Below are positions 31,083-42,496 of a DNA stretch of 64,000 bases, piece by piece. The position numbers and the translations under genes were made by a program. The stretch comes from Escherichia coli (lineage in GTDB: Bacteria; Pseudomonadota; Gammaproteobacteria; Enterobacterales; Enterobacteriaceae), in the NCBI RefSeq assembly GCF_024223415.1, contig NZ_CP100500.1; one strand, written 5' to 3'. The first letter of the stretch is position 1. Each line of letters opens with the position of its first letter. The notes beneath the pieces are model-generated. The model was not told the origin of the DNA, searched no databases, and saw only the letters and a list, made by a program, of their open reading frames with translations.

Positions 31083-31143
31083 TAACAGACAATAAACAGG
31101 CCGTGATGTGTCGCGGTCTGTTTATCGAATTAAATGCAGATAT

Positions 31144-31176
31144 AAAAAAACCAACCTTTACGGTTGGTTTTTTTTG
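31144..31176. terminator. Terminator hairpin after yejO
   Basis: aaaaaaaccaacctttacggttggtttttttt. Confidence 0.6.
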
Positions 31177-31183
31177 GGATTTT

Positions 31184-31196
31184 TGGTCCACGAGAG
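31184..31196. other. Putative distal att site (degenerate repeat of tRNA-Pro 3' end)
   Basis: tggtccacgagag versus tRNA 3' end tggtcggcacgagagg; imperfect, so the exact boundary is uncertain. Confidence 0.35.
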
Positions 31197-31257
31197 TAGT
31201 TTAATTGAGTGTGTAACCACATGATTTTAAATAATATGCTTGATTCAACTTTTAAAT

Positions 31258-31284
31258 CGTATAACCAAACGTATAACTAAAATC
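31258..31284. promoter_or_regulatory. Putative integrase arm-type repeats (left island end)
   Basis: cgtataaccaaacgtataactaaaatc; same motif recurs at 42233-42290 next to int. Confidence 0.4.
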
Positions 31285-31447
31285 ATTTGCTGAAAAAGTG
31301 TACAATTTAAAGGCGAGTTTTCCCAGAGGTTTATTAAACTACGAAAATTTCGTAGTTTGTGAATATATTCCGGCCTGCTGGTTAACAGTCCTCAGATGTG
31401 AGGGATGTAGCCAGCGCAATTTTGCGCTTTGCTTTAATCTCAGTCAG

Positions 31448-31729
31448 TTATCGCCGTAACCGCTCCGGCTTCTTCCAGTGGTACGTAATTTTTTCTTTCT
31501 CCCGATACAGTTCAACGCGGCGATTGTAGGCCAGCATTTCCAGAACGCGGATCCGTATGTCGCGCATATCCACGCCGTTAAGCTCAATACCGTCACGGCG
31601 CATCACCTCAGCAACCACACGCGCATAATTTTCGGCGGTCACGCTGTCCGGCTGCGTGGCCTGTTCGTCAGCCTGCTGGCTGATTCCGGCAACGCGACGG
31701 ATTAATCGCAGTAGTTCGGCTTCTGTCAT
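31448..31729 (-). CDS. Hypothetical protein, cos-adjacent
   Basis: 93-aa ORF, plausible composition; no family recognised. Confidence 0.45.
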   Translation of the reverse strand: MTEAELLRLIRRVAGISQQADEQATQPDSVTAENYARVVAEVMRRDGIELNGVDMRDIRIRVLEMLAYNRRVELYREKEKITYHWKKPERLRR

Positions 31730-31761
31730 TGTGCCCCCATCGTTCTGATAGTCTGGTGTCG

Positions 31762-31836
31762 TCGGGTCCTTCCTGGAATTATGGCCCGTTACGGGGCGTC
31801 GACCTCGCGGTTTTTCGCTATTTATGAGATTTTTTG
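31762..31836 (+). other. Lambda-like cos site, copy 1 (cosQ-cosN-cosB start, + orientation)
   Basis: cgggtccttcctgg...cccgttacg|GGGCGTCGACCT|cgcggtttttcgctatttatgag resembles lambda ACGGGTCCTTTCCGG...GGTTACG|GGGCGGCGACCT|CGCGGGTTTTCGCTATTTATGAAAA (lambda sequence from memory). Confidence 0.6.
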
Positions 31837-32285
31837 AGGGGGTGGTTGTTGTTTAATTGTTTGGTATATCTAATTGATAAGTAAGGTAAAAATAAAATAA
31901 ATACAACAACCTTACGGTGTATTTTGATGTCATTAATGTGAAAAAATTCAATGATATCAAATGGTTTTGTAAAAACATATGGTTGTTGTATCGCGTATTT
32001 GATGGCGTAACAGAAAGTGATTTTTAACTTTACCGCTCTGTAACTACGGATTATTCCATGCTGGCACGGAGAACGGCTACGGCATGACGCCACCCAGCCT
32101 ATACAGAACAGTAAAGCCGATAAATTGTTAATCACGCGCAGCAATGCGTGTGATTTTTGCACACTTCCGGTTAACGGGTACGATGTCCGGTTTGTTTGTA
32201 CATTTTTTGCACATGTCCGGTTCGCAGAAAGCATGTTTTTATATTTTTCATATAGTTAACTTGCAGAGAAACCGGACATGGATCC

Positions 32286-32360
32286 CGAAAAATTTTCATA
32301 AATAGTGAAAACGCGCGAGGTCGACGCCCCGTAACGGGTCCACATGCCGGAAAGGACCCG
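32286..32360 (-). other. Lambda-like cos site, copy 2 (inverted; reads cosQ-cosN-cosB on the minus strand)
   Basis: Minus strand reads cgggtcctttccggcatgtggacccgttacg|GGGCGTCGACCT|cgcgcgttttcactatttatgaaaattttt; closer to lambda than copy 1. Confidence 0.65.
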
Positions 32361-32384
32361 CAAAAAAAGCCGGATTTCTCCGGC
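32361..32384 (-). terminator. Terminator after the capsid-module operon
   Basis: Minus strand gccggagaaatccggc followed by a T-run. Confidence 0.5.
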
Positions 32385-32390
32385 CTTGTC

Positions 32391-32804
32391 TCAGATGGTT
32401 TTCAGTATGCGATCGATGTTGCCGTCATCGACCGGGTTTCTGCCATCGTATGCCATGCCAGCTGATACGGCTTTCGGGCTGTGCATGTCCATAAAGTTTT
32501 CAAAGGCTGAAGTAAGCTGTGGTGCAACCTTCGGGCGTTCCTGCTCTATGGTCATGCTAAGGATGCTTTTAGCCGTACCAACATCGATACAAGGCACGTT
32601 AGCCATTGCACGTAACAGCGGCTGGTAGTCGTCAGATTCATGAAGCGCCATAATCGCATCAGCGCGCTGCTTGTCCTGTTCTTCCAGTTTGTTTAGTCGG
32701 TGTATGGCCTCGTAGGTTGATAAACCTCTGTCAGCCATTGCCCGCGCTTCGGCTTTAAATTTACTCGCCAGCGGTAGCGTCATGATACTTTCATTCGTTG
32801 CCAT
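32391..32804 (-). CDS. Hypothetical protein, last gene of the capsid-module operon
   Basis: 137-aa ORF immediately downstream of the gpD-like gene; no family recognised. Confidence 0.55.
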   Translation of the reverse strand: MATNESIMTLPLASKFKAEARAMADRGLSTYEAIHRLNKLEEQDKQRADAIMALHESDDYQPLLRAMANVPCIDVGTAKSILSMTIEQERPKVAPQLTSAFENFMDMHSPKAVSAGMAYDGRNPVDDGNIDRILKTI

Positions 32805-32816
32805 CGTTCCCCCTGC

Positions 32817-33152
32817 TTATCGGGCCAGCGGCTGAACGGATACGCCGGAACCCGCAAAGGCGGCGCATTTTTTCGCATCGGTGTCGACGCTGTCAGGCCA
32901 GTTAACGGCGGCAATATTGAATATCCCCGTTTTGTAACACTGTGCTGATTTCTGCTTTGACGTGTCCACGGGGTGCGAAGTCAGATAAACAGCTTTGCCA
33001 GATTCCTGACCATCCCACGCCTTAAACTCGCCATTGTCTGCCAGCATCAGCGGGGTAAATTCCTGAATAACGCCAGCATCAGCGGCAAAATGTACCAGCG
33101 TCGTGGATACCTGCTGGCTGCCTGCAAATAACTCAATATATGGAGCGTCCAT
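32817..33152 (-). CDS. Head decoration protein, lambda gpD-like
   Basis: 111 aa; conserved blocks shared with lambda gpD as recalled (TPLMLxD...AWDG...YKxGxF...WP...KKxAFAG). Confidence 0.65.
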   Translation of the reverse strand: MDAPYIELFAGSQQVSTTLVHFAADAGVIQEFTPLMLADNGEFKAWDGQESGKAVYLTSHPVDTSKQKSAQCYKTGIFNIAAVNWPDSVDTDAKKCAAFAGSGVSVQPLAR

Positions 33153-33163
33153 AGAATCCCCCG

Positions 33164-34219
33164 TTAAGCAATTTTGACGGTAACAAATTTGCGAATATCT
33201 GCCGGTACCGGCTGCGGTGCGCTGTGCGTCTGCACGTACTCAATCGCCGGATCGCCGTCCTCAATCCAGTTTTTCGGGTAGTACATGTTTTGCGTTGCGC
33301 CCGTTCTTACCGCTTCCTGATCCATAATCGCACCATATGCCACAAGCCCTTTATTGTTGGTGTTACCCAGGACAAGCAAATCAGGCTCAAGGAAATATTT
33401 TTCGGTGCCGTCGCTGTCAGTGTATTTGCCGGAATAGACGATAAGGGCCAGATCACCAAGATAGCCTTTAAAGCTCACCACTTCGCCCAGGTTTTTACAG
33501 GCCAGCTCGGCGGCGGATTCTGAGCCACGGTAAAGATCGTACAGTTCACGGAATTTTTTAAAGCTGCGTAATGTGCGCCATGCCTCACCGCCCATAATCA
33601 TGACGTTGGCGGGGCAACCTGCCTGATCAGCATAAAGCTCGATGTCATAGATTGGGTCGTGCATGTCTTTATCCTGCTGGGACCATTTTTTACCACTGGC
33701 CTGCTGTATGATGCAGTTTTCCGGTATTTTCCAGTCGATTTCATAGCGTTCTATGCCTTCGCCCTCAATGATGTTTTTTCCGGTCGTTACCGCATTCACC
33801 GCCAGCCATTCCACGCGCGCCTTAATGGCGTTTATCTGGCGGCGCATGTTGCCAGTAATCAGGCGCATACGGCGGTAAGTTGGATCGTTAAGCTGTGCCG
33901 GATCTTCTCCAGCCATGCGCATGATGGTCTTTGTTGGATCGATTTCGTGCTTTGGCTTCATGTAGCCTGGTTTAATCGTGCTGGTTTCGTACCCTTTATC
34001 GCGCTGGACCTGACTACCCACCATAGGAGAACAGAACGCTGACATCGTAACCTCTTCAATGTCCAGGGTGTCCAGCATGATGTTTTGGGTGTTGAAGGTC
34101 GCCACGTTCGGGAAAAACAGCGTGGTAAACAGCGGACTAAATTTAAATTCCGAAATATCCCCGCGATTCAGGTACGCGAAAAGCTGGTTAGTTGTAAGTG
34201 CCGTTGCTTTGCCTGTCAT
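33164..34219 (-). CDS. Major capsid protein, lambda gpE-like
   Basis: 351 aa; blocks shared with lambda gpE as recalled (FKFxPLF, PGYMKPKHE, DPxYRRMR, YSGxY, YPKNW, GDPA). Confidence 0.8.
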   Translation of the reverse strand: MTGKATALTTNQLFAYLNRGDISEFKFSPLFTTLFFPNVATFNTQNIMLDTLDIEEVTMSAFCSPMVGSQVQRDKGYETSTIKPGYMKPKHEIDPTKTIMRMAGEDPAQLNDPTYRRMRLITGNMRRQINAIKARVEWLAVNAVTTGKNIIEGEGIERYEIDWKIPENCIIQQASGKKWSQQDKDMHDPIYDIELYADQAGCPANVMIMGGEAWRTLRSFKKFRELYDLYRGSESAAELACKNLGEVVSFKGYLGDLALIVYSGKYTDSDGTEKYFLEPDLLVLGNTNNKGLVAYGAIMDQEAVRTGATQNMYYPKNWIEDGDPAIEYVQTHSAPQPVPADIRKFVTVKIA

Positions 34220-34425
34220 TATTCACCTCCGTGAACCTGATTGATACCCAGCGCCGCACGTAAATAGGTACGCACCTGCCAGCCTGTTGACGGCTCAACC
34301 ATCGCCAGCGGATCAAGTCCTGCCGCAATGCCTGCTTTTACATTCTGCTGGTGGCGTTCCTTGAGCGCCTCCACGATGTCGGGGCTTATGTAGACCGTCA
34401 CCCCGCCTTTTTTCTCTTCTGCCAT
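34219..34425 (-). CDS. Hypothetical small protein, first gene of the capsid-module operon
   Basis: 68-aa ORF whose stop overlaps the gpE-like start. Confidence 0.45.
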   Translation of the reverse strand: MAEEKKGGVTVYISPDIVEALKERHQQNVKAGIAAGLDPLAMVEPSTGWQVRTYLRAALGINQVHGGE

Positions 34426-34592
34426 AGTCAGAAATTCCTCTTTGACTTAAAAAATCATAACTGGATGTTCATCCAGTCCTGATTATAATCATGATTGCAT
34501 TTTGCGCAACAATATTGAGTTACGTTGCAAATTATGAAATGATTATCCCGATCATGTGTGCCAGTGCACCATAAAAAACCTCGTATACAAAA

Positions 34593-34660
34593 GCCCGATA
34601 AGCCCCCTGTGACCTTATCGGGCTTTTTTTAGGCGTAAAAAAGCCGGATTGCTCCGGCTT
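34593..34660. terminator. Pair of terminator hairpins between the finO-like gene and the capsid operon
   Basis: gcccgataagccccctgtgaccttatcgggc + T-run, and agccggattgctccggct preceded by an A-run. Confidence 0.5.
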
Positions 34661-34683
34661 CGTCTCTTCATGTGGTCAGGGTT

Positions 34684-35268
34684 TTATGCTTTCCGTACGC
34701 CCGAGGAACTGGCATTTTTCAGAATAATATTATGCCCTGCTGGTGGCTTACCGTTATGCTTATTTTCTGCCTTCATGTTTCTGCGCTCCTGCTGTTTTTT
34801 CTTCATCTCATCCAGTCGCTTCCCCGCGTTCAACTGGTGCTCCTGTGTCACCTCCCCGCACGGATGGCCTTTCAGGTCGTAACGCACGCCACCAGCCATC
34901 AGGGAACGGTAATATCGCACTGAACTGACATAATACGCCAGCGTTGCGCGAAGCGCTCCCTGACCTAATGAAATACCTCTCGCAGTAATATCCTCCATCA
35001 GGTCATCAAATATGCCAACCTTAAGCGGTCTGGGCGATTCCTGGCTGAAAAGTTCAGGCCAGAGCGCGGCAAGGCGTTCAACGCGTCTGATATTTTTTTT
35101 CCGGCTCTTTTCTGATTTGCGTTTTGCTGCCGTCTTCTGTTGTGTTTTCTGCTCGCGGCTCTGCTTTTGCGCTGGTGTGGTTTTATCCGGCTGTTCAGCC
35201 TCCTGCGTCTTTTTCTGCGGTGTGCCGTATATGCCTTTTGGTTTTCGGTTAATGGTCAGCTTTGTCAT
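34684..35268 (-). CDS. FinO/ProQ-domain RNA-binding protein with a basic N-terminal extension
   Basis: Likely start MTKLTINRKPK (SD ggggagaa upstream); C-terminal region shares blocks with the ProQ N-terminal FinO domain as recalled (LWPELF, RPLKVGIFDDL, DLxGxPCGE). Confidence 0.65.
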   Translation of the reverse strand: MTKLTINRKPKGIYGTPQKKTQEAEQPDKTTPAQKQSREQKTQQKTAAKRKSEKSRKKNIRRVERLAALWPELFSQESPRPLKVGIFDDLMEDITARGISLGQGALRATLAYYVSSVRYYRSLMAGGVRYDLKGHPCGEVTQEHQLNAGKRLDEMKKKQQERRNMKAENKHNGKPPAGHNIILKNASSSGVRKA

Positions 35269-35347
35269 GTTCTCCCCCTTTGTGCTGTTCCACCAGCGGC
35301 ATCTGCTACCCCGTGTCGCTCCCGCTGGTGTCGTGTTTCCCCGCCTG

Positions 35348-35668
35348 TTAATAACCGTCATCATTTACGTTATCAGGGTAATCACGCCATATTTCATCAG
35401 TAAGCGACGGTAGCCCCATCTGTTGTATTGTCCTGTCTGCGGCCCTTCTGACTGCGTGAACATCATAACGGTTTTCAGGTATCGGGCGCTTTGCCTTCCT
35501 GATACATTCCCTTGCTCTCATTGCCGCAAGTTCTCTGTGCCTGTCTTCCTGAAGAGTAATCATCACATCCTGCCACCTTCTGGCAGCCCGTCGCCACAGT
35601 CCCCTGCTCTCGAGTTCTTCTGCTGTCGCGTCGCTTATTGTCCGGTTCTTCGGTGTGCTGTTGTTCAT
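35348..35668 (-). CDS. PerC-family transcriptional activator-like protein
   Basis: 106 aa with AEELESRGLWRRAARRWQDVM, resembling the conserved PerC/Pch motif as recalled. Confidence 0.5.
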   Translation of the reverse strand: MNNSTPKNRTISDATAEELESRGLWRRAARRWQDVMITLQEDRHRELAAMRARECIRKAKRPIPENRYDVHAVRRAADRTIQQMGLPSLTDEIWRDYPDNVNDDGY

Positions 35669-35685
35669 GTTGCTCCCCGCCTGAT

Positions 35686-36096
35686 TCAGAAGGGTATATC
35701 ATCTCCGTAGGGGTCATCGCCTCCCGCTGGTGGCTCATTCCCCTGTGTGCCTGTGGTTTTGCGTCTGTTCCCGCCATGACGTGCCGCACGCGCACTGATT
35801 ACGCTGTCTGCGATAACCTGCCAGCCCTGCCGCGTTTCCCCGTTCTGTCCGGTCCACTGGCTCACCTGCATGTTACCCGCCACGCTCAGGAGTTCACCTT
35901 TGCGGTGCTTTGCCAGTGCTTCGGCCTGTCTGCCAAACGCCAGCACAGATAACCACATCGTCGCCGTTCCGTCATCTGCCTGGCTGCACGGAAGGGGGAC
36001 CGCCATACTCGCCATCGCCATTTGTGTCCCCTTGCTGGTGGTCTTTAACTGCGGGTCAGCCACCAGCCGCCCGTAAGCCGCTATCTGTGCTGTCAT
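35686..36096 (-). CDS. ssb: Single-stranded DNA-binding protein (phage-type SSB)
   Basis: 136 aa; OB-fold pattern (GRLVADPQLK...WLSVLAFGRQAE...) and acidic C-terminal tail GDDIPF typical of SSB. Confidence 0.7.
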   Translation of the reverse strand: MTAQIAAYGRLVADPQLKTTSKGTQMAMASMAVPLPCSQADDGTATMWLSVLAFGRQAEALAKHRKGELLSVAGNMQVSQWTGQNGETRQGWQVIADSVISARAARHGGNRRKTTGTQGNEPPAGGDDPYGDDIPF

Positions 36097-36344
36097 GCTG
36101 TATGCTCTCCGGTTTTAACGTTGATGGTTGTCACCTGTTCCGCTCCGGCAATCTCCCGTTCTGTCAGCGTGGCAAAATTTGCCGCTACCGTTGTCATGAA
36201 TGCGCTTATCAGTTCGGGATGTGCTTTCGCGTATCCTTCTCCCGCGTGGCGGTCTATCGTTCTGATTGCCACCTTTAAGGCGTGCTCTGTCATGTCTAAC
36301 GCTTTATATTTTGGCGCTGTCTTATCTCTGGTTTTTCTGTTCAT
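36093..36344 (-). CDS. Hypothetical protein
   Basis: ORF 36093-36374; likely start MNRKTRDK, just downstream of the iterons. Confidence 0.45.
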   Translation of the reverse strand: MNRKTRDKTAPKYKALDMTEHALKVAIRTIDRHAGEGYAKAHPELISAFMTTVAANFATLTEREIAGAEQVTTINVKTGEHTA

Positions 36345-36560
36345 TCCCCACCACTCCCCACTTTTGCTCCCCACTTTTTAAATTCCCCACTTGCTCCCCA
36401 CCTCGTTTTTTGAGTGAATCTAATGCTTTGTTTTTCATTGCGTTTTTTACTCCCCACTTTTTTGGATGTATACAGGTGGGAAAGTGGGGAATTATGTTTC
36501 AATTTTGTTAAATTCCCCACTCTCCCCACTTTTACTACCCACTTTTTACAGTGGGTAAAC
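36344..36560. repeat. Iteron cluster, putative island replication origin
   Basis: At least nine direct and inverted copies of (a/c)TCCCCAC(TTTT), e.g. actccccactttt, gctccccactttt, attccccacttg, plus inverted gtgggaaagtgggga, next to the primase/helicase gene. Confidence 0.6.
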
Positions 36561-37961
36561 ATCATCCCCATCGACACAAATCACGCCGTCTTTTTCCAGC
36601 TTGGACAGCCAGCGCCGGAAGTGCTTCATCTCATACCCCAGCTTTTTCATATCGTCGCGGAGAAGGGCGATAGTGCATGGCTCTTTGTGTGCCGTCCGCG
36701 TTCTGATGCACTGCCATAGCGCGGTATGGTTTTCCGTCTTGTTGCCTGCCTCCTCGATGCGCTCCAGTTCAACGGGAGAGCGCGGCTTATCAACCACCAC
36801 CAGCGACGTGATTAACTCCCCGTCAGCGTCGGTAAAAAGCTCCACCACGCGTAAATCGTAGGCGGCCTCTTTCAGTTCCTCCGCGTCCTTCATTTTGGTG
36901 CAGGATATAACCAGGGCTTTACTGTCTGCACCTTCTCGGCGAATACGGTATTCAGCGTCCAGAGATGCACGAAATGCACTGGAACCACGCGCCCCCTTTG
37001 TTTCATCCTTGCCGGAATGGTGGACCACCAGCACCGTGGCCCCTGTGCGTCGTTTCAGGTCGTCACATCCACGGATAAACGCCCCCATATCCCGCGCGTC
37101 ATTTTCATCATTACCGCCAAAGCAACGCGCCAGCGTATCCAGAATAATCATGCGTACCGGTTTACCCGTTTCCCGTTCAACCTGGCGGGAAGCGATAACC
37201 ATTTCATCAACATCAAGCGGGGCTGCCGGAAAAATCGGGCGGTTTACCAGGTACAGATTTTTCACCCGTTCATCATTAACGATTTCCCATGCCTTGATAC
37301 GACGGGGGACACCAATGCCACCTTCACCGACAACATACATCACCGAACCATGCGCCACCCTGCGGCCTCCCCAGTGGCGCCCCGTGGCAACATGACACGC
37401 CCAGGAACACGCAAGGAATGATTTATAGGAACCGCTCGCACCGTATGTGCTGCACAATGAATTAGCCGGAATCACGCCCTTAACGACATAATCAAGCTGT
37501 GTGTCGTATCCTGCAGATCCAATGCTCATGGGTAGCGTGGTTTTTCGCTGGCTGTATTGCTCATCAGTAAGTATTTCCCCGCGCTCTGCCTGTTCGCGGA
37601 TCCGTTGCAGGTAGTCGCGCCATTCCTCCCGCTTCTGGCTGTGCATTCCCTCGGGGTAATAACTCGCATCCCGTATACCTGCCGCCGCCAGTTTTTGCCC
37701 GATGGCATTAATATTTGATGGCTTGATGTGGCCTGCCTTGTACAGCCGGACACAATAGCGACCATCGTCGATAATTTTCAGGTCTGCCAGTTCGTCAAGC
37801 TGACTGTCTCCCAGCCATACTGGCGGGACGTTATCGCCAGCAAGTCGCCCGTCCTGTTCCTGCCATTGTTTTGCGTGCGCCCAGGCATCACTACCTGCAA
37901 AAATAATGACTTCGGTCATTTTGTTGTGTGGCTGTTTTTTTAAGTTCGGTGCCAGTTTCAT
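36546..37961 (-). CDS. Replication protein: putative primase/helicase (RecA-like NTPase, AAA_25/RepA-like)
   Basis: 471 aa; P-loop-like GASGSYKSF and Walker B-like MIILDTLARCF; position typical of satellite pri-rep genes. Confidence 0.55.
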   Translation of the reverse strand: MKLAPNLKKQPHNKMTEVIIFAGSDAWAHAKQWQEQDGRLAGDNVPPVWLGDSQLDELADLKIIDDGRYCVRLYKAGHIKPSNINAIGQKLAAAGIRDASYYPEGMHSQKREEWRDYLQRIREQAERGEILTDEQYSQRKTTLPMSIGSAGYDTQLDYVVKGVIPANSLCSTYGASGSYKSFLACSWACHVATGRHWGGRRVAHGSVMYVVGEGGIGVPRRIKAWEIVNDERVKNLYLVNRPIFPAAPLDVDEMVIASRQVERETGKPVRMIILDTLARCFGGNDENDARDMGAFIRGCDDLKRRTGATVLVVHHSGKDETKGARGSSAFRASLDAEYRIRREGADSKALVISCTKMKDAEELKEAAYDLRVVELFTDADGELITSLVVVDKPRSPVELERIEEAGNKTENHTALWQCIRTRTAHKEPCTIALLRDDMKKLGYEMKHFRRWLSKLEKDGVICVDGDDVYPL

Positions 37962-38257
37962 TTTTTATCCCTGAATCCGTTAATCATGGTTTTCATCTTC
38001 TGAATATTGGCGCGTGCTTTCTCCCTGCTGGTTGGTTTACTGCGGGGCGCTGCCTGTACCAGAGAAAAATCACGCCGGAACTGATAAACAGGCATCACGC
38101 AGTCATATTCGTAGCCATCACGGCGGTAAGTGATGCGCCGTTCTGCCACGCCTTTAATCGTTACCGTACCGCCGTAGTTATCACGGAAAATATCGCCGGG
38201 ACGGATTTCAGGCCGAGCGGGGCCGCTGGCAGTAAAGCCAGAATTTTTCTTTTTCAT
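37958..38257 (-). CDS. Hypothetical protein
   Basis: 99-aa ORF overlapping the primase start (ATGA). Confidence 0.45.
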   Translation of the reverse strand: MKKKNSGFTASGPARPEIRPGDIFRDNYGGTVTIKGVAERRITYRRDGYEYDCVMPVYQFRRDFSLVQAAPRSKPTSREKARANIQKMKTMINGFRDKK

Positions 38258-38261
38258 GGTT

Positions 38262-38462
38262 TTATTTTCCTGTCAGTGATTCCGGCTTTATTCCGGCGCG
38301 AATACAGGCTTCAGAAAAAAAAGCCAGAGAACCAATAACCTCATTATTTCTAAGGCGGCATTGCGATTTCACTTTCCCTTTATCCAGGAATATCAAAACG
38401 CGCCCCGTATAATCAGATGGCACATTAAGCACTACAGGTAAGTGCGCTTCATGATTATTCAT
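38262..38462 (-). CDS. Hypothetical small protein
   Basis: ORF 38262-38531; likely start MNNHEAH (66 aa). Confidence 0.35.
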   Translation of the reverse strand: MNNHEAHLPVVLNVPSDYTGRVLIFLDKGKVKSQCRLRNNEVIGSLAFFSEACIRAGIKPESLTGK

Positions 38463-38742
38463 GGCTAACCACCTCCTGGAATTTTCTTCTGTAACGCGCC
38501 TCTGCCACATATTCAGCATAGTCCGACGCAATATTGAGAATATCGCTACCCGTTCCTGAATGTTCGGCGGTTTCCAGTAAAAAACATGCAGCTTTTACCA
38601 TGTCAGCAACACATAACAGCGCAATATCTGTATCTTCCGGTGTGCCATCAAATTCCTGTTTCAGGGCATTAAAACGATCATCACGCATAACCCCATATTC
38701 ACAATCAGCAATCAGGATGGCTTTGGCCTCATTCAGTGCCAT
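38455..38742 (-). CDS. Hypothetical protein (C-terminal, protein-like part of a 595-aa stop-free frame; true start uncertain, could extend to about 38898)
   Basis: Last ~95 codons of frame 38455-40242 are acidic and helix-like; upstream part looks non-protein-like. Confidence 0.4.
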   Translation of the reverse strand: MALNEAKAILIADCEYGVMRDDRFNALKQEFDGTPEDTDIALLCVADMVKAACFLLETAEHSGTGSDILNIASDYAEYVAEARYRRKFQEVVSHE

Positions 38743-38896
38743 ATCAGCGGTAAGCTGTGCGTAGGCCAGCAAATGCGGGATTATTGCCCCTGTATATTCC
38801 GGCTCTCTGATAATGTGGTCGGATGTGTTGATTAAATAGTTTGTGCGAAAAATGCACCTGTAACCATCAGTTAACAACGGATATACAGGGGGGACC

Positions 38897-39067
38897 ATGA
38901 ATGATAAGGGGGTGCCGTTTGATGTGCTCCTGCAAAAGCTGAATGCTGCACGCGCCGCAAGGGAACGTGAGCGCATGAGTAATAACCCTGTCCCTCCTGA
39001 ATTACCTCGCCCTGAACATTTTCCGCTTGAGGATTTCATCAGGGGACGAATCCGAACAAAACGATAA
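38897..39067 (+). CDS. Small ORF a (56 aa); paralogous to ORF c
   Basis: MNDKGVPFDVLLQKLNAARAARERERMSNNPVPPELPRPEHFPLEDFIRGRIRTKR; G-rich SD-like sequence upstream; shares the FPLE-FI / RERER motif with ORF c. Confidence 0.3.
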   Translation: MNDKGVPFDVLLQKLNAARAARERERMSNNPVPPELPRPEHFPLEDFIRGRIRTKR

Positions 39068-39310
39068 CCGCCGCCGTGATATGAGGCATCACGACGCAAT
39101 GCATTACAGGTGAGCACCATGAACAAATCCATATTATCCCCCACAGTTCTGGACGTAAACACAAAGCAGCGACAGATATTATTACGCGCCGTCATTAAAG
39201 CCAGACACGAGAAATTAAACCAAATCTTAAAATAAGATACGCCGCTACCGCTGTAAGTCTTCATCAGAAACAGAAAACGCCAGAGCAGATGAGCACGGAG
39301 GTAACTCTTT

Positions 39311-39505
39311 ATGAAAATAAACGAATCAGGGGAAATTACCGAAGCCAGCGTGGTACGCCAGCGGAGGCGGGAACGACGGGTACGGCCCCCCGCGCCATCC
39401 GATAATTTCCCGCTTGAGCGCTTCATCAGTGAACGGCCCCGCATACGCTGGAACGGCACAACCCCATACCCCGAGGAGAGACAGACAAAAAACAAACAGC
39501 GATGA
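39311..39505 (+). CDS. Small ORF c (64 aa); paralogous to ORF a
   Basis: SD ggagg 8 nt upstream; contains RRRERRVRPPAPSDNFPLERFISERP. Confidence 0.3.
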   Translation: MKINESGEITEASVVRQRRRERRVRPPAPSDNFPLERFISERPRIRWNGTTPYPEERQTKNKQR

Positions 39506-39681
39506 TGAAATCTGGAGGCCAATACCATCACGCAGCCATCAGGAGATTGCTGACGCGCTTCCTGTTCGCTGGTGGCCTCGATGGTAATCACGCGCGGTTG
39601 TGCAGTGCTCAGGGCGATAAAACGCCACACAAAGGCCGTTTGTGTGTGCGCAAGGCGTGGGGTATGCTGTGTTCCAGCCAT
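39460..39681 (-). CDS. Icd-like (host cell division inhibitor-like) protein; 3' end undefined because the frame has no stop until 38455
   Basis: Strong SD (aggag, 9-nt spacer) before ATG at 39681; MAGTQHTPRLAHTQTAFVWRFIALS...TSEQEARQQ... resembles Icd-like proteins of satellite elements as recalled. Confidence 0.35.
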
Positions 39682-39808
39682 AATCGTTACTCCTGTTAAC
39701 GGTTTGGTTAGACGCCCTGCATGTGTGCCACCACTGCGGGGCGTTGTTTTTGTGGTGTCATTGGTATACATTGTCACCTTAATGGCATTATCACTACAGA
39801 GGTTTATC

Positions 39809-39985
39809 ATGTCAACCAATGACAACAAAAAAGAAAGATTTTCCGTACAACTACGCCTAGACGCAGATTTGTTCGAGCGTTTAAGTATTGCCATGAAAGA
39901 AGATGGCGACGATAACCGATCTGGATGGATCAAAAGGCTTTTACGACGCGAATTAGATAAACGCGGCATTGAGTCAAAAAGCTGA
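39809..39985 (+). CDS. Ribbon-helix-helix (Arc/Mnt-like) DNA-binding protein
   Basis: 58 aa; ERFSVQLRLDADLFERLSIAMKEDGDDNRSGWIKRLLRRE parallels the Arc repressor pattern (beta-strand then two helices) as recalled. Confidence 0.5.
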   Translation: MSTNDNKKERFSVQLRLDADLFERLSIAMKEDGDDNRSGWIKRLLRRELDKRGIESKS

Positions 39986-40078
39986 CAGCCAACCAGCAAG
40001 CCAGCACACTGATCACATTGCCCACCAGCCGCAAATGTGGCATTGTTGGTGATGCTTTTGTTTTCCCTTGTTCCCACT

Positions 40079-40108
40079 GGCGACCCTTTTGCGGTCGCCT
40101 TTGTTTTG
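40079..40108 (+). terminator. Rho-independent terminator after the RHH gene
   Basis: ggcgacccttttgcggtcgcc + tttgtttt. Confidence 0.55.
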
Positions 40109-40202
40109 CCTGTTATCCGGCAATTGTGGCGCTTCGCCACACGGTTTATATAACCCCACTGCTCAGATTCATTTTTTGCGCAGTAGGTTAATTGTTCGCA
40201 AG

Positions 40203-40231
40203 GGCGGCTCCTTATCGGGGCCGCTTTTTTC
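40203..40231 (+). terminator. Second plus-strand terminator before alpA
   Basis: gcggctccttatcggggccgc + tttttt. Confidence 0.5.
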
Positions 40232-40256
40232 GTGTTTGTCATATCTGTGATACCCG

Positions 40257-40463
40257 TTAAGCAGCCGTTCCGCGTGCTTCCTGTTCGCGTTCTTTCTGCC
40301 AGGCCAACACATCATCCTCATACCATCCGCGACGGCGTAAACCAACGCGAAAACCCTGCGGAAATTCTCCGGCGTTGATCATGCTTTGCAGCGTGCTGTC
40401 TGCCTTGATGTGGATAATTTTTTTTACTTCCTGGCGAAAGATAATTTTTCTGATTGCTTCCAT
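40257..40463 (-). CDS. alpA: AlpA-family regulator / excisionase-like protein
   Basis: 68 aa; HTH region LQSMINAGEFPQGFRVGLRRRGWYEDDVLAW typical of AlpA-family proteins. Confidence 0.7.
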   Translation of the reverse strand: MEAIRKIIFRQEVKKIIHIKADSTLQSMINAGEFPQGFRVGLRRRGWYEDDVLAWQKEREQEARGTAA

Positions 40464-40593
40464 CGTGATTTACCTTGTGAATCCGGTGTATTCCGGTGAC
40501 AAATACGGTAAATCATCGGATATGGGTAAAAACAGTTCCCACCGTTTTTAAACGGTATACACCGTTTTTTATATTGATGATTTGAAATGGAAT

Positions 40594-40622
40594 TATAAAA
40601 AAAGCGGCATTTCTGCCGCTTC
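40594..40622 (-). terminator. Terminator between the int-proximal ORF and alpA
   Basis: Minus strand agcggcagaaatgccgct followed by a T-run. Confidence 0.45.
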
Positions 40623-40630
40623 CAGGATTG

Positions 40631-40882
40631 TTACCGCCATTTTTTGGGCCTGCCTCCGATCTTCATAGATGCCGGACGTACGACCTTATCAATACTTACC
40701 GCCAGATTTCTGGAAGCGCCACGGGATACCAGAAAATCTACTACCTGTTTTTTTGATGGGGCCGTCGTCCTGTCCTCCGGATCGTAGGTTGACCAAAATT
40801 CATGCTGAACCATCAGGGCCAGTTGCAGCCCGTCGCAATTGCATCTGATATTTTTTTGCATCTTAACGGTTTCATGTTTCAC
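40631..40882 (-). CDS. Hypothetical protein between int and alpA
   Basis: 83-aa ORF with basic C-terminus (GGRPKKWR). Confidence 0.4.
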   Translation of the reverse strand: MKHETVKMQKNIRCNCDGLQLALMVQHEFWSTYDPEDRTTAPSKKQVVDFLVSRGASRNLAVSIDKVVRPASMKIGGRPKKWR

Positions 40883-40959
40883 GGCCTTGTCGTTAAATTT
40901 GATGCAATTATACGACGGTTTTACATGGTTTTCGTAGTTTTTACTGGTTTTCTGTACAG

Positions 40960-42219
40960 CTACACGGCTCGGATACCCCTTTTACCACTGGCGAGGGTTA
41001 CGCCCGTCGCCGCAGCCTCGACAAATTCGCCCCACCAGCGCATCAGCACGATGCGTTTTTCTATGTAGTTGCTCCGGTTGTATGCCCGTCTAACTTCGTT
41101 GGTGTCGACGTGGGCAAGTGCCGCCTCTATTACGTCCGGCTCGAATCCTTCCTCGTTCGCTGCTGTGCTGAATATGGCGCGTAATCCATGAGACACCAGC
41201 ACGCCAGCGAATCCCATACGCCGCAATGCTGCGTTAGCTGTCTGGCTGTTCATCGGCTGCTGTGGGTCTTTCAGACTTGGGAAAACGTAATTGCGGTGGT
41301 GGCTGATTGGTTTCATGGCCTCCAGCACCGCCATAGCCTGACCGGAAAGCGGGATAACGTGATCCCTGCGCATCTTCATGCGTCCGGCAGGTATCGTCCA
41401 TTGCTTCGCGTCCAGGTTGATTTCATCCCACCGCGTTGATGACGCTTCGGCGGGACGGGTTACGGTCAGTAACTGCCATTCAATCAGTAATCTGGTCTGC
41501 CGTTCTGTTGCCGATACTGATAAAGCCTGCATAAGCTCGGGCAGCTGTTCGGGGCGGATTGTTGGCATATGTTTTTTTACAGGTGAGGGAAACGCCTTAC
41601 GCACATTCATAGCCGGATTGGCATCAATCAGCCCACTGTTGGCGGCGTAATCCATTACCTCATTAACGCGCTGTAAAACCCGCTTGAGTGTTTCCAGGTT
41701 GCCGCGCTCCTTGATGGGGGTAAGCACTTCAACGAACCTTCGGGCGGTGAGGGTATCTATTGGCGTGTTGCCGATGAACGGGAATACATATTTATCCAGC
41801 GAACGCCAGATGTCTTTAATCGTGTTGGGGGCCAGATTCTGGCTGATTTTCACCTGGTACCATGCCGCCGCCACATTTTCGAACGTGTTCCCTTGTCTTC
41901 GGGCCTCTGTCTCTCTTTTTTGCCTCTCGTGGTCCTGCGGGTCAGTTCCGGCACTGATTAACGTCCTGTACTCGCTACGGCGTTTTCTGGCATCAGCCAG
42001 GGAAACATCTTCAAGCGATCCAAAACTCAGCAATATTCTTTTTTTGTCCGATGGTCGGTAGTAGGAAAATCTCCAGAGTTTTGATCCAGACGGTTTGACC
42101 AGGAGAAAAAGCCCTCCGCCGTCCTGCAGGGTGTACTCCTTTTGCGCTGGTCTGGCTGCTTTGATCTGCACTGTGGTTAATGGGTGTGTTTTTCTCGCCA
42201 TATGTCTATGATTCCACAC
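40960..42219 (-). CDS. int: Tyrosine recombinase / integrase (P4-type)
   Basis: 419 aa adjacent to tRNA-Pro; N-terminal arm-binding region (LFLLVKPSGSKLWRFSYY) and C-terminal catalytic domain (HGLRAIFST...LAHV...RAYNRSNY). Confidence 0.9.
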   Translation of the reverse strand: MWNHRHMARKTHPLTTVQIKAARPAQKEYTLQDGGGLFLLVKPSGSKLWRFSYYRPSDKKRILLSFGSLEDVSLADARKRRSEYRTLISAGTDPQDHERQKRETEARRQGNTFENVAAAWYQVKISQNLAPNTIKDIWRSLDKYVFPFIGNTPIDTLTARRFVEVLTPIKERGNLETLKRVLQRVNEVMDYAANSGLIDANPAMNVRKAFPSPVKKHMPTIRPEQLPELMQALSVSATERQTRLLIEWQLLTVTRPAEASSTRWDEINLDAKQWTIPAGRMKMRRDHVIPLSGQAMAVLEAMKPISHHRNYVFPSLKDPQQPMNSQTANAALRRMGFAGVLVSHGLRAIFSTAANEEGFEPDVIEAALAHVDTNEVRRAYNRSNYIEKRIVLMRWWGEFVEAAATGVTLASGKRGIRAV

Positions 42220-42232
42220 GAAAAAACAGGGT

Positions 42233-42290
42233 TTTAGTTATACGGCTTTAGTTATACGTCAGCCCGTATAACTAAACGTATAACTAAAAA
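42233..42290. promoter_or_regulatory. Cluster of putative integrase arm-type sites
   Basis: ttagttatacg x2 (inverted) and cgtataactaaacgtataactaaaa between int and the tRNA. Confidence 0.4.
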
Positions 42291-42419
42291 ATCCGGCTGA
42301 TAGCTTATAAATCCGGTGATGTTCGGTGACTAAAAAACATAAAAAAACCCGCCAATCAAGTGATTAGCGGGTTATCCCTGTCTTATCCGGTGCTTTCCGG
42401 TGATATCCGGTGGGCGATT

Positions 42420-42496
42420 TGGTCGGCACGAGAGGATTTGAACCTCCGACCCCCGACACCCCATGACGGTGCGCTACCAGGCTGCGCTACGTGCCG
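42420..42496 (-). tRNA. proL: tRNA-Pro (proL-type)
   Basis: Reverse complement reads CGGCACGTAGCGCAGCCTGGTAGCGCACCGTCATGGGGTGTCGGGGGTCGGAGGTTCAAATCCTCTCGTGCCGACCA (77 nt, cloverleaf-compatible). Confidence 0.9.

Follow-up and report, generated by a model that had tools for sequence, protein, structure and literature searches.

The segment between yejO and proL in the window (the whole 64-kb stretch of E. coli DNA that was analysed) is very probably a classical Gram-negative PICI which belongs to the EcCICFT073 family and appears to be intact, i.e. a helper-dependent satellite of lambda-like cos phages whose own tyrosine integrase inserted it at the very 3' end of proL. This PICI family is already known and has been described since 2018. 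EcCICFT073, an E. coli PICI that was experimentally mobilised and serves as the model Gram-negative PICI, is induced by phage, depends on AlpA, is packaged at cos and is mobilised by lambda and phi80 (PMC6092414, PMC6739421).

The gene content was established by profile and structure searches (PHROGs, NCBIfam, Pfam and PDB). The island is syntenic with EcCICFT073 along its full length, gene for gene: int, alpA and an eta/icd-like region are followed by DUF4222, the helicase gene with its iterons, SSB and PerC, and then by lambda-type capsid, decoration and scaffold-like genes and two inverted cos sites. From the 83-aa protein through the late module, protein identity with EcCICFT073 reaches 71-95%, with the exception of PerC (45%) and of a ProQ/FinO gene absent there. 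The core ORFs are all full length compared to EcCICFT073. Of the five PICI core components of SatelliteFinder the island has four, and it has no forbidden component. None of the island ORFs matched terminase, portal, tail or lysis families, and no terminase, portal or tail genes adjoin the segment. The sequence-only reading had already noted the lack of such genes and proposed a satellite rather than a prophage, which is supported by the synteny and by the set of core components.

Boundaries, integration and early region

Both junctions were aligned with the empty site of K-12, where proL and yejO are neighbours separated by about 100 bp, as the sequence-only reading had stated. The island measures 11,236 bp, its flanks in the window being yejO and yejM, and its ends differ by at most 2 bp from those first proposed (about 11.2 kb, 31184-42419, at tRNA-Pro). 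The comparison also defined the att core, as had been recommended: the 7-bp crossover sequence TTTGGTC was placed at 31182-31188 and 42418-42424. In the left junction (31182-31196) the core is followed by the attP-derived CACGAGAG, which resembles the tRNA 3' end and is 2 bp shorter. In the right junction (42418-42496, minus strand) it overlaps the 3' end of an intact tRNA-Pro(GGG) gene (42420-42496, minus strand). Integrase arm-type repeats occur as two tandem copies of CGTATAACYAAA (31258-31281, plus strand) and four copies of CGTATAACTAAA, two inverted and two direct (42233-42288). All six perfect copies, against 0.33 expected by chance in the window, lie within about 190 bp of the att cores. 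The repeat ATCCGGTGnnnnYCGGTGA was found three times (0.00 expected), once directly upstream of alpA (40481-40499, plus strand) and twice between the arm sites and the att core (42311-42329, 42385-42403), suggesting putative AlpA/Xis binding sites.

The presence of a P4-type integrase beside the tRNA 3' end was confirmed. The tyrosine integrase (40960-42201, minus strand) has an arm-binding domain and the P4/CP4-57 type architecture (Pfam Arm-DNA-bind_3, Phage_int_M and Phage_integrase), and exceeds the NCBIfam cut-off of NF007246 (E 6e-166). It is present in 434 of 5426 genomes and shares only 24% identity with the integrase of EcCICFT073. In Nissle 1917, a sister island with the same int occupies the same site. 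Between int and alpA, a gene for a 76-aa protein (40631-40861, minus strand) is followed by a terminator-like hairpin (40600-40623, terminator scan). This gene has no counterpart in EcCICFT073 and accompanies the integrase module; the annotations of strain 135 and of the Nissle island list an identical protein, and no PHROG, NCBIfam or PADLOC match was obtained for it. The predicted AlpA was recovered as an AlpA-like regulator/excisionase (40257-40463, minus strand; phrog_66, phrog_2790) with a PHROG E value of 5e-7 and a weak Pfam Phage_AlpA match covering the full model (i-E 0.004). It sits at the same position as alpA of EcCICFT073, with 42% identity across 31 aa.

A stop-free frame of 595 codons (38455-40242, minus strand) begins 14 nt past the alpA stop. 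The probability of such a frame lacking stops is about 1e-13 from base composition, and in each of the five islands that were compared the same frame has no stop between those of alpA and icd. PHROG and NCBIfam matches are confined to aa 188-246 and 474-594; the frame contains an Icd/Kil-like gene nested at 39520-39681 and a 3' part that resembles phrog_2512 (38455-38820). By analogy with the P4 eta/kil model (PMC10111431), the frame may be read as the counterpart of eta with nested kil. A candidate sigma-70-like promoter within the frame, TTGACA-17-GATAAT (39787-39815, minus strand; consensus match only), fits 11 of 12 consensus positions and has the nested icd start about 105 nt downstream; the equivalent place in EcCICFT073 reads TTGACG-18-TATAGT. 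Antisense to the frame and convergent with alpA lies a 58-aa ribbon-helix-helix-like gene of the YlcI/YnfO family (39809-39985, plus strand), with weak PHROG matches only (Arc-like repressors, E 0.04-0.2). Genes of this family are annotated in RefSeq at the same position in Nissle, B771 and CFT073. The adjoining 260 nt (39986-40245) are strongly structured, with six or seven hairpins, among them plus-strand terminator-like hairpins (terminator scan), and folding z-scores of -4.6 (plus strand) and -3.8 (minus strand). The core of this segment is conserved in a four-island alignment, and 288 of 5426 genomes contain a core of 116 nt. A related PICI has two C4/CI-type immunity RNAs, whereas a search of the proL island found none, so that the P4-like regulatory model is only partly supported.

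Replication, regulatory and capsid genes

The replication protein (36546-37961, minus strand), noted earlier as a 'primase/helicase', joins a conserved N-terminal domain (aa 1-134) to a helicase of the AAA_25 RepA type. The 134-aa domain has only a predicted TOPRIM-like fold, so that primase activity is not established. The proposed iteron origin agrees with a putative origin of nine AGTGGGGA-type iterons directly downstream of the rep gene (36354-36543), a stretch of 190 bp with 9 of the 16 such matches in the window. At the equivalent position EcCICFT073 and the Nissle island have TCTACC/GGTAGA iterons instead. Since both helicase type and iteron sequence are unlike those of EcCICFT073, the rep-ori module was swapped as a unit. 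The neighbouring genes, all on the minus strand, encode a conserved 83-aa protein (36093-36344, phrog_1231, 71% identical to its EcCICFT073 counterpart), the expected single-stranded DNA-binding protein (SSB; 35686-36096, TIGR00621 above cut-off, phrog_44, 82% identity with the SSB of EcCICFT073), a DUF4222 protein (37958-38257, RefSeq, phrog_285, 74% identical to its counterpart) and a 66-aa protein (38262-38462, phrog_340).

The remaining genes are likewise on the minus strand. A PerC-family regulator (35348-35668) was identified by phrog_994, transcriptional-activator PHROGs and RefSeq annotation. The ProQ/FinO-domain protein (34684-35268) matched NCBIfam ProQ and FinO with E about 5e-21, under the curated cut-offs, and is annotated as such in RefSeq; the gene is absent from the Nissle island as well as from EcCICFT073, and in this form was found in 9 of 5426 genomes. 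Capsid genes, also noted earlier, were detected. The major capsid protein (33164-34219) belongs to the lambda gpE family (phrog_29, E 3.5e-109; PDB 3BQW, E 6e-229; lambda gpE 7VI9, E 8e-82) and is 95% identical to c1499 of EcCICFT073. The head decoration protein (32817-33152; gpD/SHP family, phrog_49, E 1.5e-27) matched PDB 1TD0 (E 5e-13) and lambda gpD (E 4e-9) and is 95% identical to c1500. Upstream of the capsid gene lies a conserved 68-aa protein (34219-34425, phrog_3255, 93% identical to its EcCICFT073 counterpart). A 137-aa scaffold-like protein (32391-32804, phrog_1999, 91%) matches the C-terminal scaffold part of the head maturation protease phrog_53, with 36% identity to residues 416-484 of a lambdoid S49 protease. 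The conserved 93-aa PICI protein (31448-31729, phrog_1561, 89%) has 994 homologues, almost all from E. coli and unnamed, and gave no match in PDB or PADLOC.

The suggestion that unassigned ORFs carry accessory or anti-phage cargo was not supported, as these are mostly conserved family genes. EcCICFT073 has counterparts of four of the six listed ranges and of part of another, but none of the sixth (40631-40861), and PADLOC found no defence gene among ten island proteins. The range 37958-38742, taken for one ORF, holds DUF4222, the 66-aa gene and the 3' part of the 595-codon frame.

Packaging sites and proposed life cycle

The cos sites noted earlier are two inverted, inward-facing sites of lambda type, whose cosN sequences at 31791-31809 (plus strand) and 32314-32332 (minus strand) are the sole matches in the window (0.01 expected by chance). 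The right-pointing cos1 (31764-31994, plus strand) comprises a cosQ-like GGGTCCTT (31764-31771), cosN and cosB1 to about 31994. Together, cos1 and cosB1 share 95-99% identity with cos-cosB of one lineage of lambdoid phages, and 95-97% by BLAST over 232 bp in the case of L015/L016, with few mismatches between cosN and about 31994, and the match ends about 28 nt short of the phage terS start. Both also have the rare cosN variant G6T, GGGCGTCGACCT. Phage cos of this type with terS and terL was found in 219 of 5426 E. coli genomes, and a related PICI (L012) shares one IMG/VR source genome with the matching phage (L015). The left-pointing cos2 (32183-32359, minus strand) comprises cosB2, with three CCGGACAT-type (R-like) repeats (32183-32190, 32213-32220 and, inverted, 32272-32279), cosN and a cosQ-like AAGGACCC (32352-32359). 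Over 184 bp it shares 88.6% identity with the PhiR12_1 phage cos region, which includes three R-like repeats and ends 49 nt upstream of Nu1. Compared to the EcCICFT073 cos on the side of the 93-aa gene, cos2 is 86-90% identical and inverted. Each site carries a complete cosB of phage type, the two being copies from separate lambdoid lineages.

Between the cos sites, the only protein-like ORF is a 3' remnant of rppA (32033-32098, minus strand), whose 22 codons correspond to residues 123-144 of EcCICFT073 RppA (tblastn, 73% identity, E 9e-5); the same search gave no island match for residues 1-122. The remnant adjoins a junction with an inverted 22-bp duplication in a rearranged mosaic segment, which could equally signal decay. 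In the EcCICFT073 family, rppA is the only known packaging-redirection and interference gene. No TerS is present in the island, no helper prophage lies within the window, and a second copy of cosB1 was not found in strain 135, the closest host genome, so that the matching phage is not resident there. From the cos sequences we infer that the island may be packaged by an unmodified helper terminase via cos mimicry. Four island units total 44.9 kb, a length that would fill one lambda-sized head.

The examples of EcCICFT073 and P4 suggest a life cycle by analogy. A lambdoid helper phage would switch on alpA, and AlpA, bound to the ATCCGGTGnnnnYCGGTGA repeats, would excise the island together with Int, which would use TTTGGTC as its core and CGTATAACYAAA as its arm sites. 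Translation of the eta-like frame, coupled to alpA, may let transcription continue through the icd-like gene and reach those for replication. The RepA-type helicase and SSB would then replicate the circle from the AGTGGGGA iterons, and the helper's own terminase would cut and package concatemers at the cos sites. Having neither Rpp nor TerS, the island would rely on its two phage-type cos/cosB instead.

Alternative origins and comparison with EcCICFT073

Four complete genomes, of chicken and human origin and from two continents, have near-identical copies (99.1-99.9%), as do IMG/VR contigs. With 4 genomes at a coverage of at least 80%, the exact island counts as rare, and genomes that carry it have up to 8 places matching the island query. 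This rarity would suit a decaying, immobile relic which is inherited only vertically, the loss of rppA and the scrambling between the cos sites having ended preferential packaging. The 22-codon remnant beside the inverted duplication and the missing TerS point the same way, and the cos recognised through Rpp is the required one in EcCICFT073 (PMC6739421). Such a relic is nevertheless rather unlikely: the other 17 genes are all intact and of full length, the element has perfect att junctions at both ends and six perfect arm sites, and isolates of different hosts and countries share near-identical copies. Moreover, cosB1 differs very little from a phage cosB that is common in E. coli; this speaks for recent acquisition or maintenance and against drift. 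It is quite improbable that packaging needs another PICI of the same cell to provide TerS or Rpp in trans, a role for which the additional query matches, possibly other PICIs, would offer candidates. The cosB1 type does sit upstream of a PICI-borne terS in Nissle (83% identity), whose product is 49% identical to TerS of phage L015; however, cosB1 is far closer to the phage version, making the phage's own TerS the simpler partner.

The lambda type of the capsid, decoration and scaffold-like proteins and of cos could also suggest the remnant of a lambdoid prophage that retained head genes and cos. This origin is highly improbable given that the capsid protein is only 45% identical to its lambdoid prophage homologue and so much closer to that of EcCICFT073, that the order 68-aa gene, E, D, scaffold-like gene differs from lambda's, and that int-alpA-icd-rep form a backbone of the PICI/P4 type. 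Both the size and the clean att sites suit a complete 11-kb element, and the same layout is found again at other att sites. A P4-like satellite with a P2-type helper would share int, alpA, the icd-like genes and the eta-like frame, and a capsid-forming PICI (cf-PICI) would also encode a capsid protein, yet either assignment is hardly credible. No ORF matched sid, psu, delta, epsilon or the alpha primase, cos is of lambda and not P2 type, and the island lacks the genes by which cf-PICIs are defined (portal, protease, head-tail connectors, HNH and terL).

An EcCICFT073-family PICI is retained as the preferred reading. True variation in the island is found in the ProQ/FinO gene, in the replicon, downstream of alpA and in the inter-cos segment. 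Five differences separate it from EcCICFT073: the integrase and att site are unrelated, the replicon is swapped (AAA_25 helicase, AGTGGGGA iterons), the ProQ/FinO gene is an addition, rppA is cut to its 22-codon remnant and the inter-cos segment is rearranged. Within this known family, the island is unusual only in the loss of rppA and in its near-exact copies of packaging sites from two different lambda-like phages.

Integration site and gene content of the island

In E. coli K-12 MG1655, yejO and proL are neighbours separated by about 100 bp, which bears out the adjacency stated in the sequence-only reading and provides the empty site. Alignment of both window junctions to this site showed that the chromosome is interrupted exactly at TTTGGTC, and the comparison of the proL region thereby gave a 7-bp att core. 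The left copy of the crossover core occupies 31182-31188; the right copy, 42418-42424, overlaps the last bases of an intact tRNA-Pro(GGG) identified by ARAGORN and Rfam (42420-42496, minus strand). On its right side, the left core is followed by island-borne CACGAGAG, which imitates the 3' end of the tRNA but is 2 bp shorter. Core and shorter mimic together confine the crossover to the 7-bp core, and the native tRNA stays intact. The island unit measures 11,236 bp, and the coordinates first proposed for a phage satellite (31184-42419) agree within 2 bp with this core-to-core unit. It is flanked by yejO and yejM, both core genes, and no prophage was found in the window. yejO itself (28491-31082) is a single 863-codon ORF in the window; it is split by IS5 in K-12 and marked as frameshifted by RefSeq in the near-identical strain 135. 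A sub-threshold match to the OrzO-P antitoxin RNA (31102-31174; 27.9 bits vs a gathering score of 60) is probably meaningless; it coincides with a bidirectional terminator hairpin located between yejO and the island.

The integrase is of the tyrosine type (NF007246, E 6e-166; domains Arm-DNA-bind_3, Phage_int_M and Phage_integrase) and is present in 434 of 5426 complete E. coli genomes. Six perfect repeats of CGTATAACYAAA occur exclusively at both island ends (0.33 expected by chance), a distribution that corresponds to the pattern of integrase arm-type sites. The motif ATCCGGTGnnnnYCGGTGA is repeated three times (0 expected), in the stretch from the int-side arm sites to the core and also just upstream of alpA; by likeness to the sites of other excisionases, these repeats are read as candidate AlpA/Xis sites. 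As is characteristic of PICIs, an integrase is encoded by the island itself, and direct repeats at either end mark a specific att site.

All genes but one small gene are encoded on the minus strand. The integration and regulation genes comprise the tyrosine integrase, a 76-aa ORF for which the searched libraries contain no known relative, an AlpA-like regulator and a 595-codon frame with an Icd-like domain. The regulator matched a PHROG excisionase/regulator family (E 5e-7) and the full Pfam Phage_AlpA model, yet the latter with an i-E of only 0.004. It is located downstream of int on the same strand, as expected for a PICI, and in synteny with alpA of EcCICFT073, the prototype of Gram-negative cos PICIs (Fillol-Salom et al., 2018, PMC6092414; 2019, PMC6739421). 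DUF4222, a 66-aa gene, a 471-aa replication protein, an 83-aa gene and SSB make up the replication genes, accompanied by a PerC-family regulator and a ProQ/FinO-domain protein. The late module contains a 68-aa gene, the major capsid, the decoration protein, a 137-aa protein and a 93-aa conserved protein. Homologues of capsid-morphogenesis proteins, another feature of PICIs, are found there: the major capsid is of lambda gpE type (E 8e-82 to 7VI9; E 6e-229 to PDB 3BQW, deposited as "putative capsid protein of prophage"), the decoration protein is of gpD/SHP type, and the 137-aa protein is similar to the scaffold part located C-terminally in lambdoid head proteases.

PHROG scans covering every annotated ORF gave no family match for terminase, portal, tail, holin or endolysin, and the tail, holin, portal and head-tail connector genes that PICIs do not carry are likewise missing here. 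For the small terminase subunit, tblastn with PICI and phage TerS reached only the non-coding cosB part. Of the five core components in the SatelliteFinder PICI model (de Sousa, 2023), the island counts four, terS being the missing one; none of the forbidden components occurs, and the island would be classified as 'Type B'. EcCICFT073 likewise has no TerS (PMC6092414).

Junctions, att core and gene content confirmed the satellite island at tRNA-Pro, and its reading as helper-dependent is supported by the synteny with EcCICFT073 and by the lack of terminase, portal and tail genes among its ORFs. The element is thus best assigned, from its sequence, as a putative helper-dependent PICI-type satellite of the EcCICFT073 family. 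This family was already described in 2018-2019 and the island is a further member of it. The additional proposal of accessory or anti-phage cargo is not supported: PADLOC was negative on ten unassigned proteins and no NCBIfam or PHROG name refers to defence. The six ORFs or ranges originally left unassigned belong mostly to the family core, not to cargo: four and part of a fifth were matched in EcCICFT073, while no EcCICFT073 counterpart exists for the sixth, a 76-aa gene located between int and alpA that moves with the integrase module. For annotation purposes, the locus can be entered as a proL-integrated PICI of the EcCICFT073 family; its "hypothetical" genes are family core and not defence cargo.

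The exact island is rare. Near-identical copies were found in four complete genomes from chicken and human sources (99.1-99.9% identity), and IMG/VR contigs carry it at 99.8-100% identity. No resident helper was found in the window, and strain 135, the host genome nearest to it, has no second cosB1 copy. Induction, excision, replication and packaging of the island are predicted by analogy with EcCICFT073 and P4.

Packaging module with two facing cos sites

Exactly two lambda-type cosN are present in the window, in inverted orientation and with 523 bp between their starts; cosQ was also identified at the island cos sites. The first site, cos1 (31764-31994), faces right and has its nearest phage cos in the IMG/VR lambdoid phages L015 and L016 (95-97% by BLAST over 232 bp), with few mismatches from cosN to position ~31994; the match stops ~28 nt before the phage terS start. 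The second, cos2 (32183-32359), faces left and is nearest to PhiR12_1 (88.6% over 184 bp), the match stopping 49 nt before Nu1. It contains CCGGACAT three times, one copy being inverted relative to the other two. Both cosN copies (31791-31809 and 32314-32332) display the G-to-T variant GGGCGTCGACCT, which creates a SalI site; lambda cosN reads GGGCGGCGACCT, and this change is absent from lambda, PhiR12, EcCICFT073 and the PICI of E. coli Nissle 1917. The variant was detected in only seven IMG/VR contigs, namely four PICI-like ones and three lambdoid phages, and is shared by L015 and L016. The related PICI L012 and phage L015 originate from the same source genome. The L015/L016-type phage cos, accompanied by terS and terL, occurs in 219 of 5426 genomes.

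In EcCICFT073, rppA (c1503), which encodes the packaging-redirection protein Rpp, lies between the equivalent cos sites; in Nissle, a terS takes this place. Six-frame inspection of the region 31150-32420 revealed neither a credible ORF nor a wHTH ORF in the inter-cos segment of the island. A hidden Rpp or TerS was not found by this inspection, by PDB searches of the 93- and 137-aa proteins, or by tblastn with RppA, Nissle TerS and L015 TerS; the sole find of these searches was an rppA remnant. Only the last 22 codons of rppA survive, the recognisable part corresponding to RppA residues 123-144, and this remnant is joined to the neighbouring sequence at an inverted junction. Within 32028-32116, the rppA 3' remnant and the adjoining EcCICFT073-like segment lie in opposite orientation. 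The same stretch forms an inverted duplication of ~22 bp with a 45-bp spacer, the scar of the rearrangement that removed rppA. Compared with the EcCICFT073 cos on the side of the 93-aa gene, cos2 shows 86-90% identity but opposite orientation, and the cosQ flanks are exchanged between cos1 and cos2 relative to EcCICFT073. Such an exchange is the expected product of recombination between inverted cos repeats.

Cos PICIs of the Rpp type encode an Rpp that retargets the helper TerS and have a cosB unlike that of the helper (Fillol-Salom, 2019). The island encodes no such protein, and both of its cosB regions match phage cosB. The terminase would then no longer be redirected, and each of two helper lineages would simply be offered a complete phage cos site. 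Four island units amount to 44.9 kb, or 93% of the lambda genome (48,502 bp), and three units to 69%. The lambda packaging window includes 93% of genome length and excludes 69%. DNA of EcCICFT073 has been found in phage-sized heads (PMC6092414). The island represents a natural variant without Rpp and without TerS, in which near-exact copies of the cos-cosB regions from two distinct lambdoid lineages face each other. If it is mobile, E. coli PICIs could switch between Rpp, their own TerS and plain cos mimicry via cassette exchange between inverted cos repeats, and the cosB sequences would indicate candidate helpers.

Replicon and region downstream of alpA

The replicon of the island is swapped as one unit relative to EcCICFT073. 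The replication protein (36546-37961, minus strand) keeps its N-terminal 134 residues (60% identity to EcCICFT073), followed by an AAA_25 RepA-type helicase, and nine AGTGGGGA-type iterons form the origin directly downstream of rep; at this position, EcCICFT073 and Nissle have TCTACC/GGTAGA iterons. The N-terminal domain (1-134) is found fused to several helicase types (AAA_25, D5_N), with 49-98% identity in most hits. It is labelled 'DNA primase' by NCBI. A fold search with the predicted structure gave TOPRIM-like matches of moderate Z only, and the canonical acidic motifs were not obvious. The earlier primase/helicase call stands for the helicase, and its primase part is putative. A ProQ/FinO-domain gene (34684-35268) encoding a lysine-rich N-terminus is inserted between perC and the late genes; it is missing from EcCICFT073 and from the Nissle island, and the form carried here is present in nine genomes. 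ProQ/FinO-like regulators were noted in episomal Vibrio satellites in a 2026 paper (PMC13230959).

After alpA, RefSeq calls a 595-aa "Icd-like protein" (38455-40242, minus strand). Homologues of this frame were obtained only at residues 188-246 (Icd-like, NF033153) and 474-594 (phrog_2512), and the composition of the remainder is un-protein-like. The possibility of an annotation artefact was dropped, as the same frame is open in five of five islands (the one in the window and the islands L002, L009, L010 and L011). In all of them, the icd frame opens 1-37 nt past the alpA stop (14 nt in the window) and stays open to the icd stop or beyond. The open runs span 359, 433, 599, 599 and 235+417 codons, against 20-52 stops in the other frames, and from base composition alone 595 stop-free codons have a probability of ~1e-13. 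The sequence of strain B771 is identical to the window over 38400-39651 and differs only upstream. RefSeq labels for the long frame vary, from 595-aa 'Icd-like protein' to pseudogene, 'ash family protein' or no annotation at all. Antisense genes are annotated inside it, and most of its length is without protein homologues.

In satellite P4, kil is a truncated form of eta nested within it in the same frame, eta contains a constitutive promoter, and eta translation blocks premature termination (PMC10111431). The layout of the island after alpA is, as far as sequence can tell, that described for eta/kil: a long alpA-coupled ORF, an in-frame nested kil/icd and an internal promoter were all found. 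The predicted promoter is near-consensus (TTGACA-17-GATAAT, 39815-39787, 11/12) and located ~105 nt before the nested icd start; EcCICFT073 has a near-consensus promoter at the matching place. A 24-nt inverted repeat (39748-39832, 83% complementary) brackets the internal promoter. One of its arms corresponds to the first 24 nt of a YlcI/YnfO-like ORF, whose start codon overlaps the -35 hexamer of the opposing promoter. Three plus-strand ORFs (38897-39067, 39110-39235 and 39311-39505) were considered as novel genes and rejected, having neither a PHROG hit nor a codon-usage signal. The 64-aa ORF among them, the sole one searched, had no homologue among 5.8 billion proteins. These small ORFs are probably not genes.

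The 260-nt segment that separates alpA from the antisense YlcI/YnfO-like gene (39986-40245) forms a string of hairpins with z values of -4.6 and -3.8 vs shuffled controls, on both strands. Plus-strand terminator hairpins are antisense to the start of the long frame, one of them (40200-40238) being opposite its first codons. A 116-nt core is strongly conserved across islands with unrelated integrases and occurs in 288 E. coli genomes. The element matched no Rfam family, and one of 37 pairs was compensatory in a covariation analysis for which the sequences are too conserved to discriminate. A 21-nt inverted repeat (39616-39636 / 40097-40117; 81% complementary, 460 nt apart) joins this structured region to the interior of the icd-like CDS. 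No C4, isrK or other Rfam RNA was matched in the island, C4 and isrK being absent even at E up to 10; C4 models detected two copies in the related island L011, and EcCICFT073 and the Nissle island gave no C4 hit at the gathering threshold. The immunity RNA of CI/C4 type with its target sites, which belongs to the eta/kil arrangement, was thus not found in the island.

We consider it rather improbable that an undescribed RNA switch in the 260-nt element governs quiescence and induction, with the ProQ/FinO protein as chaperone and the loss of Rpp offset by a wider helper range. Such a switch would work through a plus-strand transcript of the YlcI/YnfO-like gene, which could block eta translation and cause premature termination, as do P4 CI RNA and F FinP. 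The extra ProQ/FinO protein of the island would be the chaperone of this RNA, and the two phage-derived cos-cosB cassettes would make more helpers usable. How Gram-negative PICIs stay silent was a question left open in 2018 (PMC6092414); the long frame and the structured element are a place to look for PICI silencing.

Comparison with known satellites

Three features deserve attention: the dual-cos layout without Rpp and TerS, the modular exchange of the replicon along with the ProQ/FinO gene, and, after alpA, the conserved open frame with its structured element. Capsid-forming cf-PICIs such as EcCIEDL933 (Alqurainy et al., 2023) share the int-alpA-rep type of backbone and also encode a capsid protein. 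Unlike the island, they build their own capsids and encode portal, protease, head-tail connectors, HNH, TerS and TerL; no portal, protease, head-tail adaptor/connector, HNH, TerS or TerL was found among the island ORFs. SaPIbov5, a cos PICI of S. aureus, carries the helper cos for packaging and encodes a capsid-protein homologue (PMC6092414), but its host is Gram-positive, its regulation is of Stl type, its sequences are unrelated and it has a single cos; the likeness would be a functional analogy only.

With P4, the island has in common an integrase with the same kind of arm-binding domain and an AlpA/Vis-type regulator, after which comes a long frame enclosing a cell-division-inhibitor gene and an internal promoter (eta/kil, PMC10111431). 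Packaging by carriage of a helper cos would be a further likeness, if the island is mobile as predicted. In contrast to P4, it has lambda-type instead of P2-type cos and lambda-type capsid genes, lacks sid, psu, delta and epsilon, and has no detectable C4/CI RNA. Neither PHROG nor NCBIfam gave a match in the island to the psu-delta-sid operon, epsilon or alpha primase, which places it outside the P4-like satellites.

EcCICFT073 is located between roxA and phoQ in CFT073 according to RefSeq annotation. Both elements are ~11 kb in size and their gene order is identical from alpA through the last gene. Identity reaches 95% for the capsid (c1499) and decoration (c1500) proteins, 93% for the 68-aa, 91% for the 137-aa and 89% for the 93-aa protein, 82% for SSB, 74% for DUF4222 and 71% for the 83-aa protein. 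Both encode SSB, PerC and DUF4222, and in both a long open frame after alpA encloses an icd-like gene; two inverted lambda-type cos sites, one with a CCGGACAT-type cosB, are likewise shared. The integrase, however, is only 24% identical, with att at proL vs roxA-phoQ, and alpA is 42% identical over 31 aa only. The rep C-terminus is of a primase family in EcCICFT073 and an AAA_25 helicase in the island, and the iterons differ, as does the region from icd to DUF4222. The ProQ/FinO gene is extra in the island, rppA is lost save 22 codons, and the inter-cos segment is inverted and partly replaced by an L016-type phage cosB.

The Nissle 1917 PICI (NZ_CP058217.1, 1695.8-1707.5 kb) differs by a terS between its cos sites, a P4-family primase, TCTACC iterons and the lack of a ProQ/FinO gene. 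It shares with the island the proL att site, an int-alpA end that is 99.5% identical, a capsid module that is ~93% identical and two inverted cos sites.
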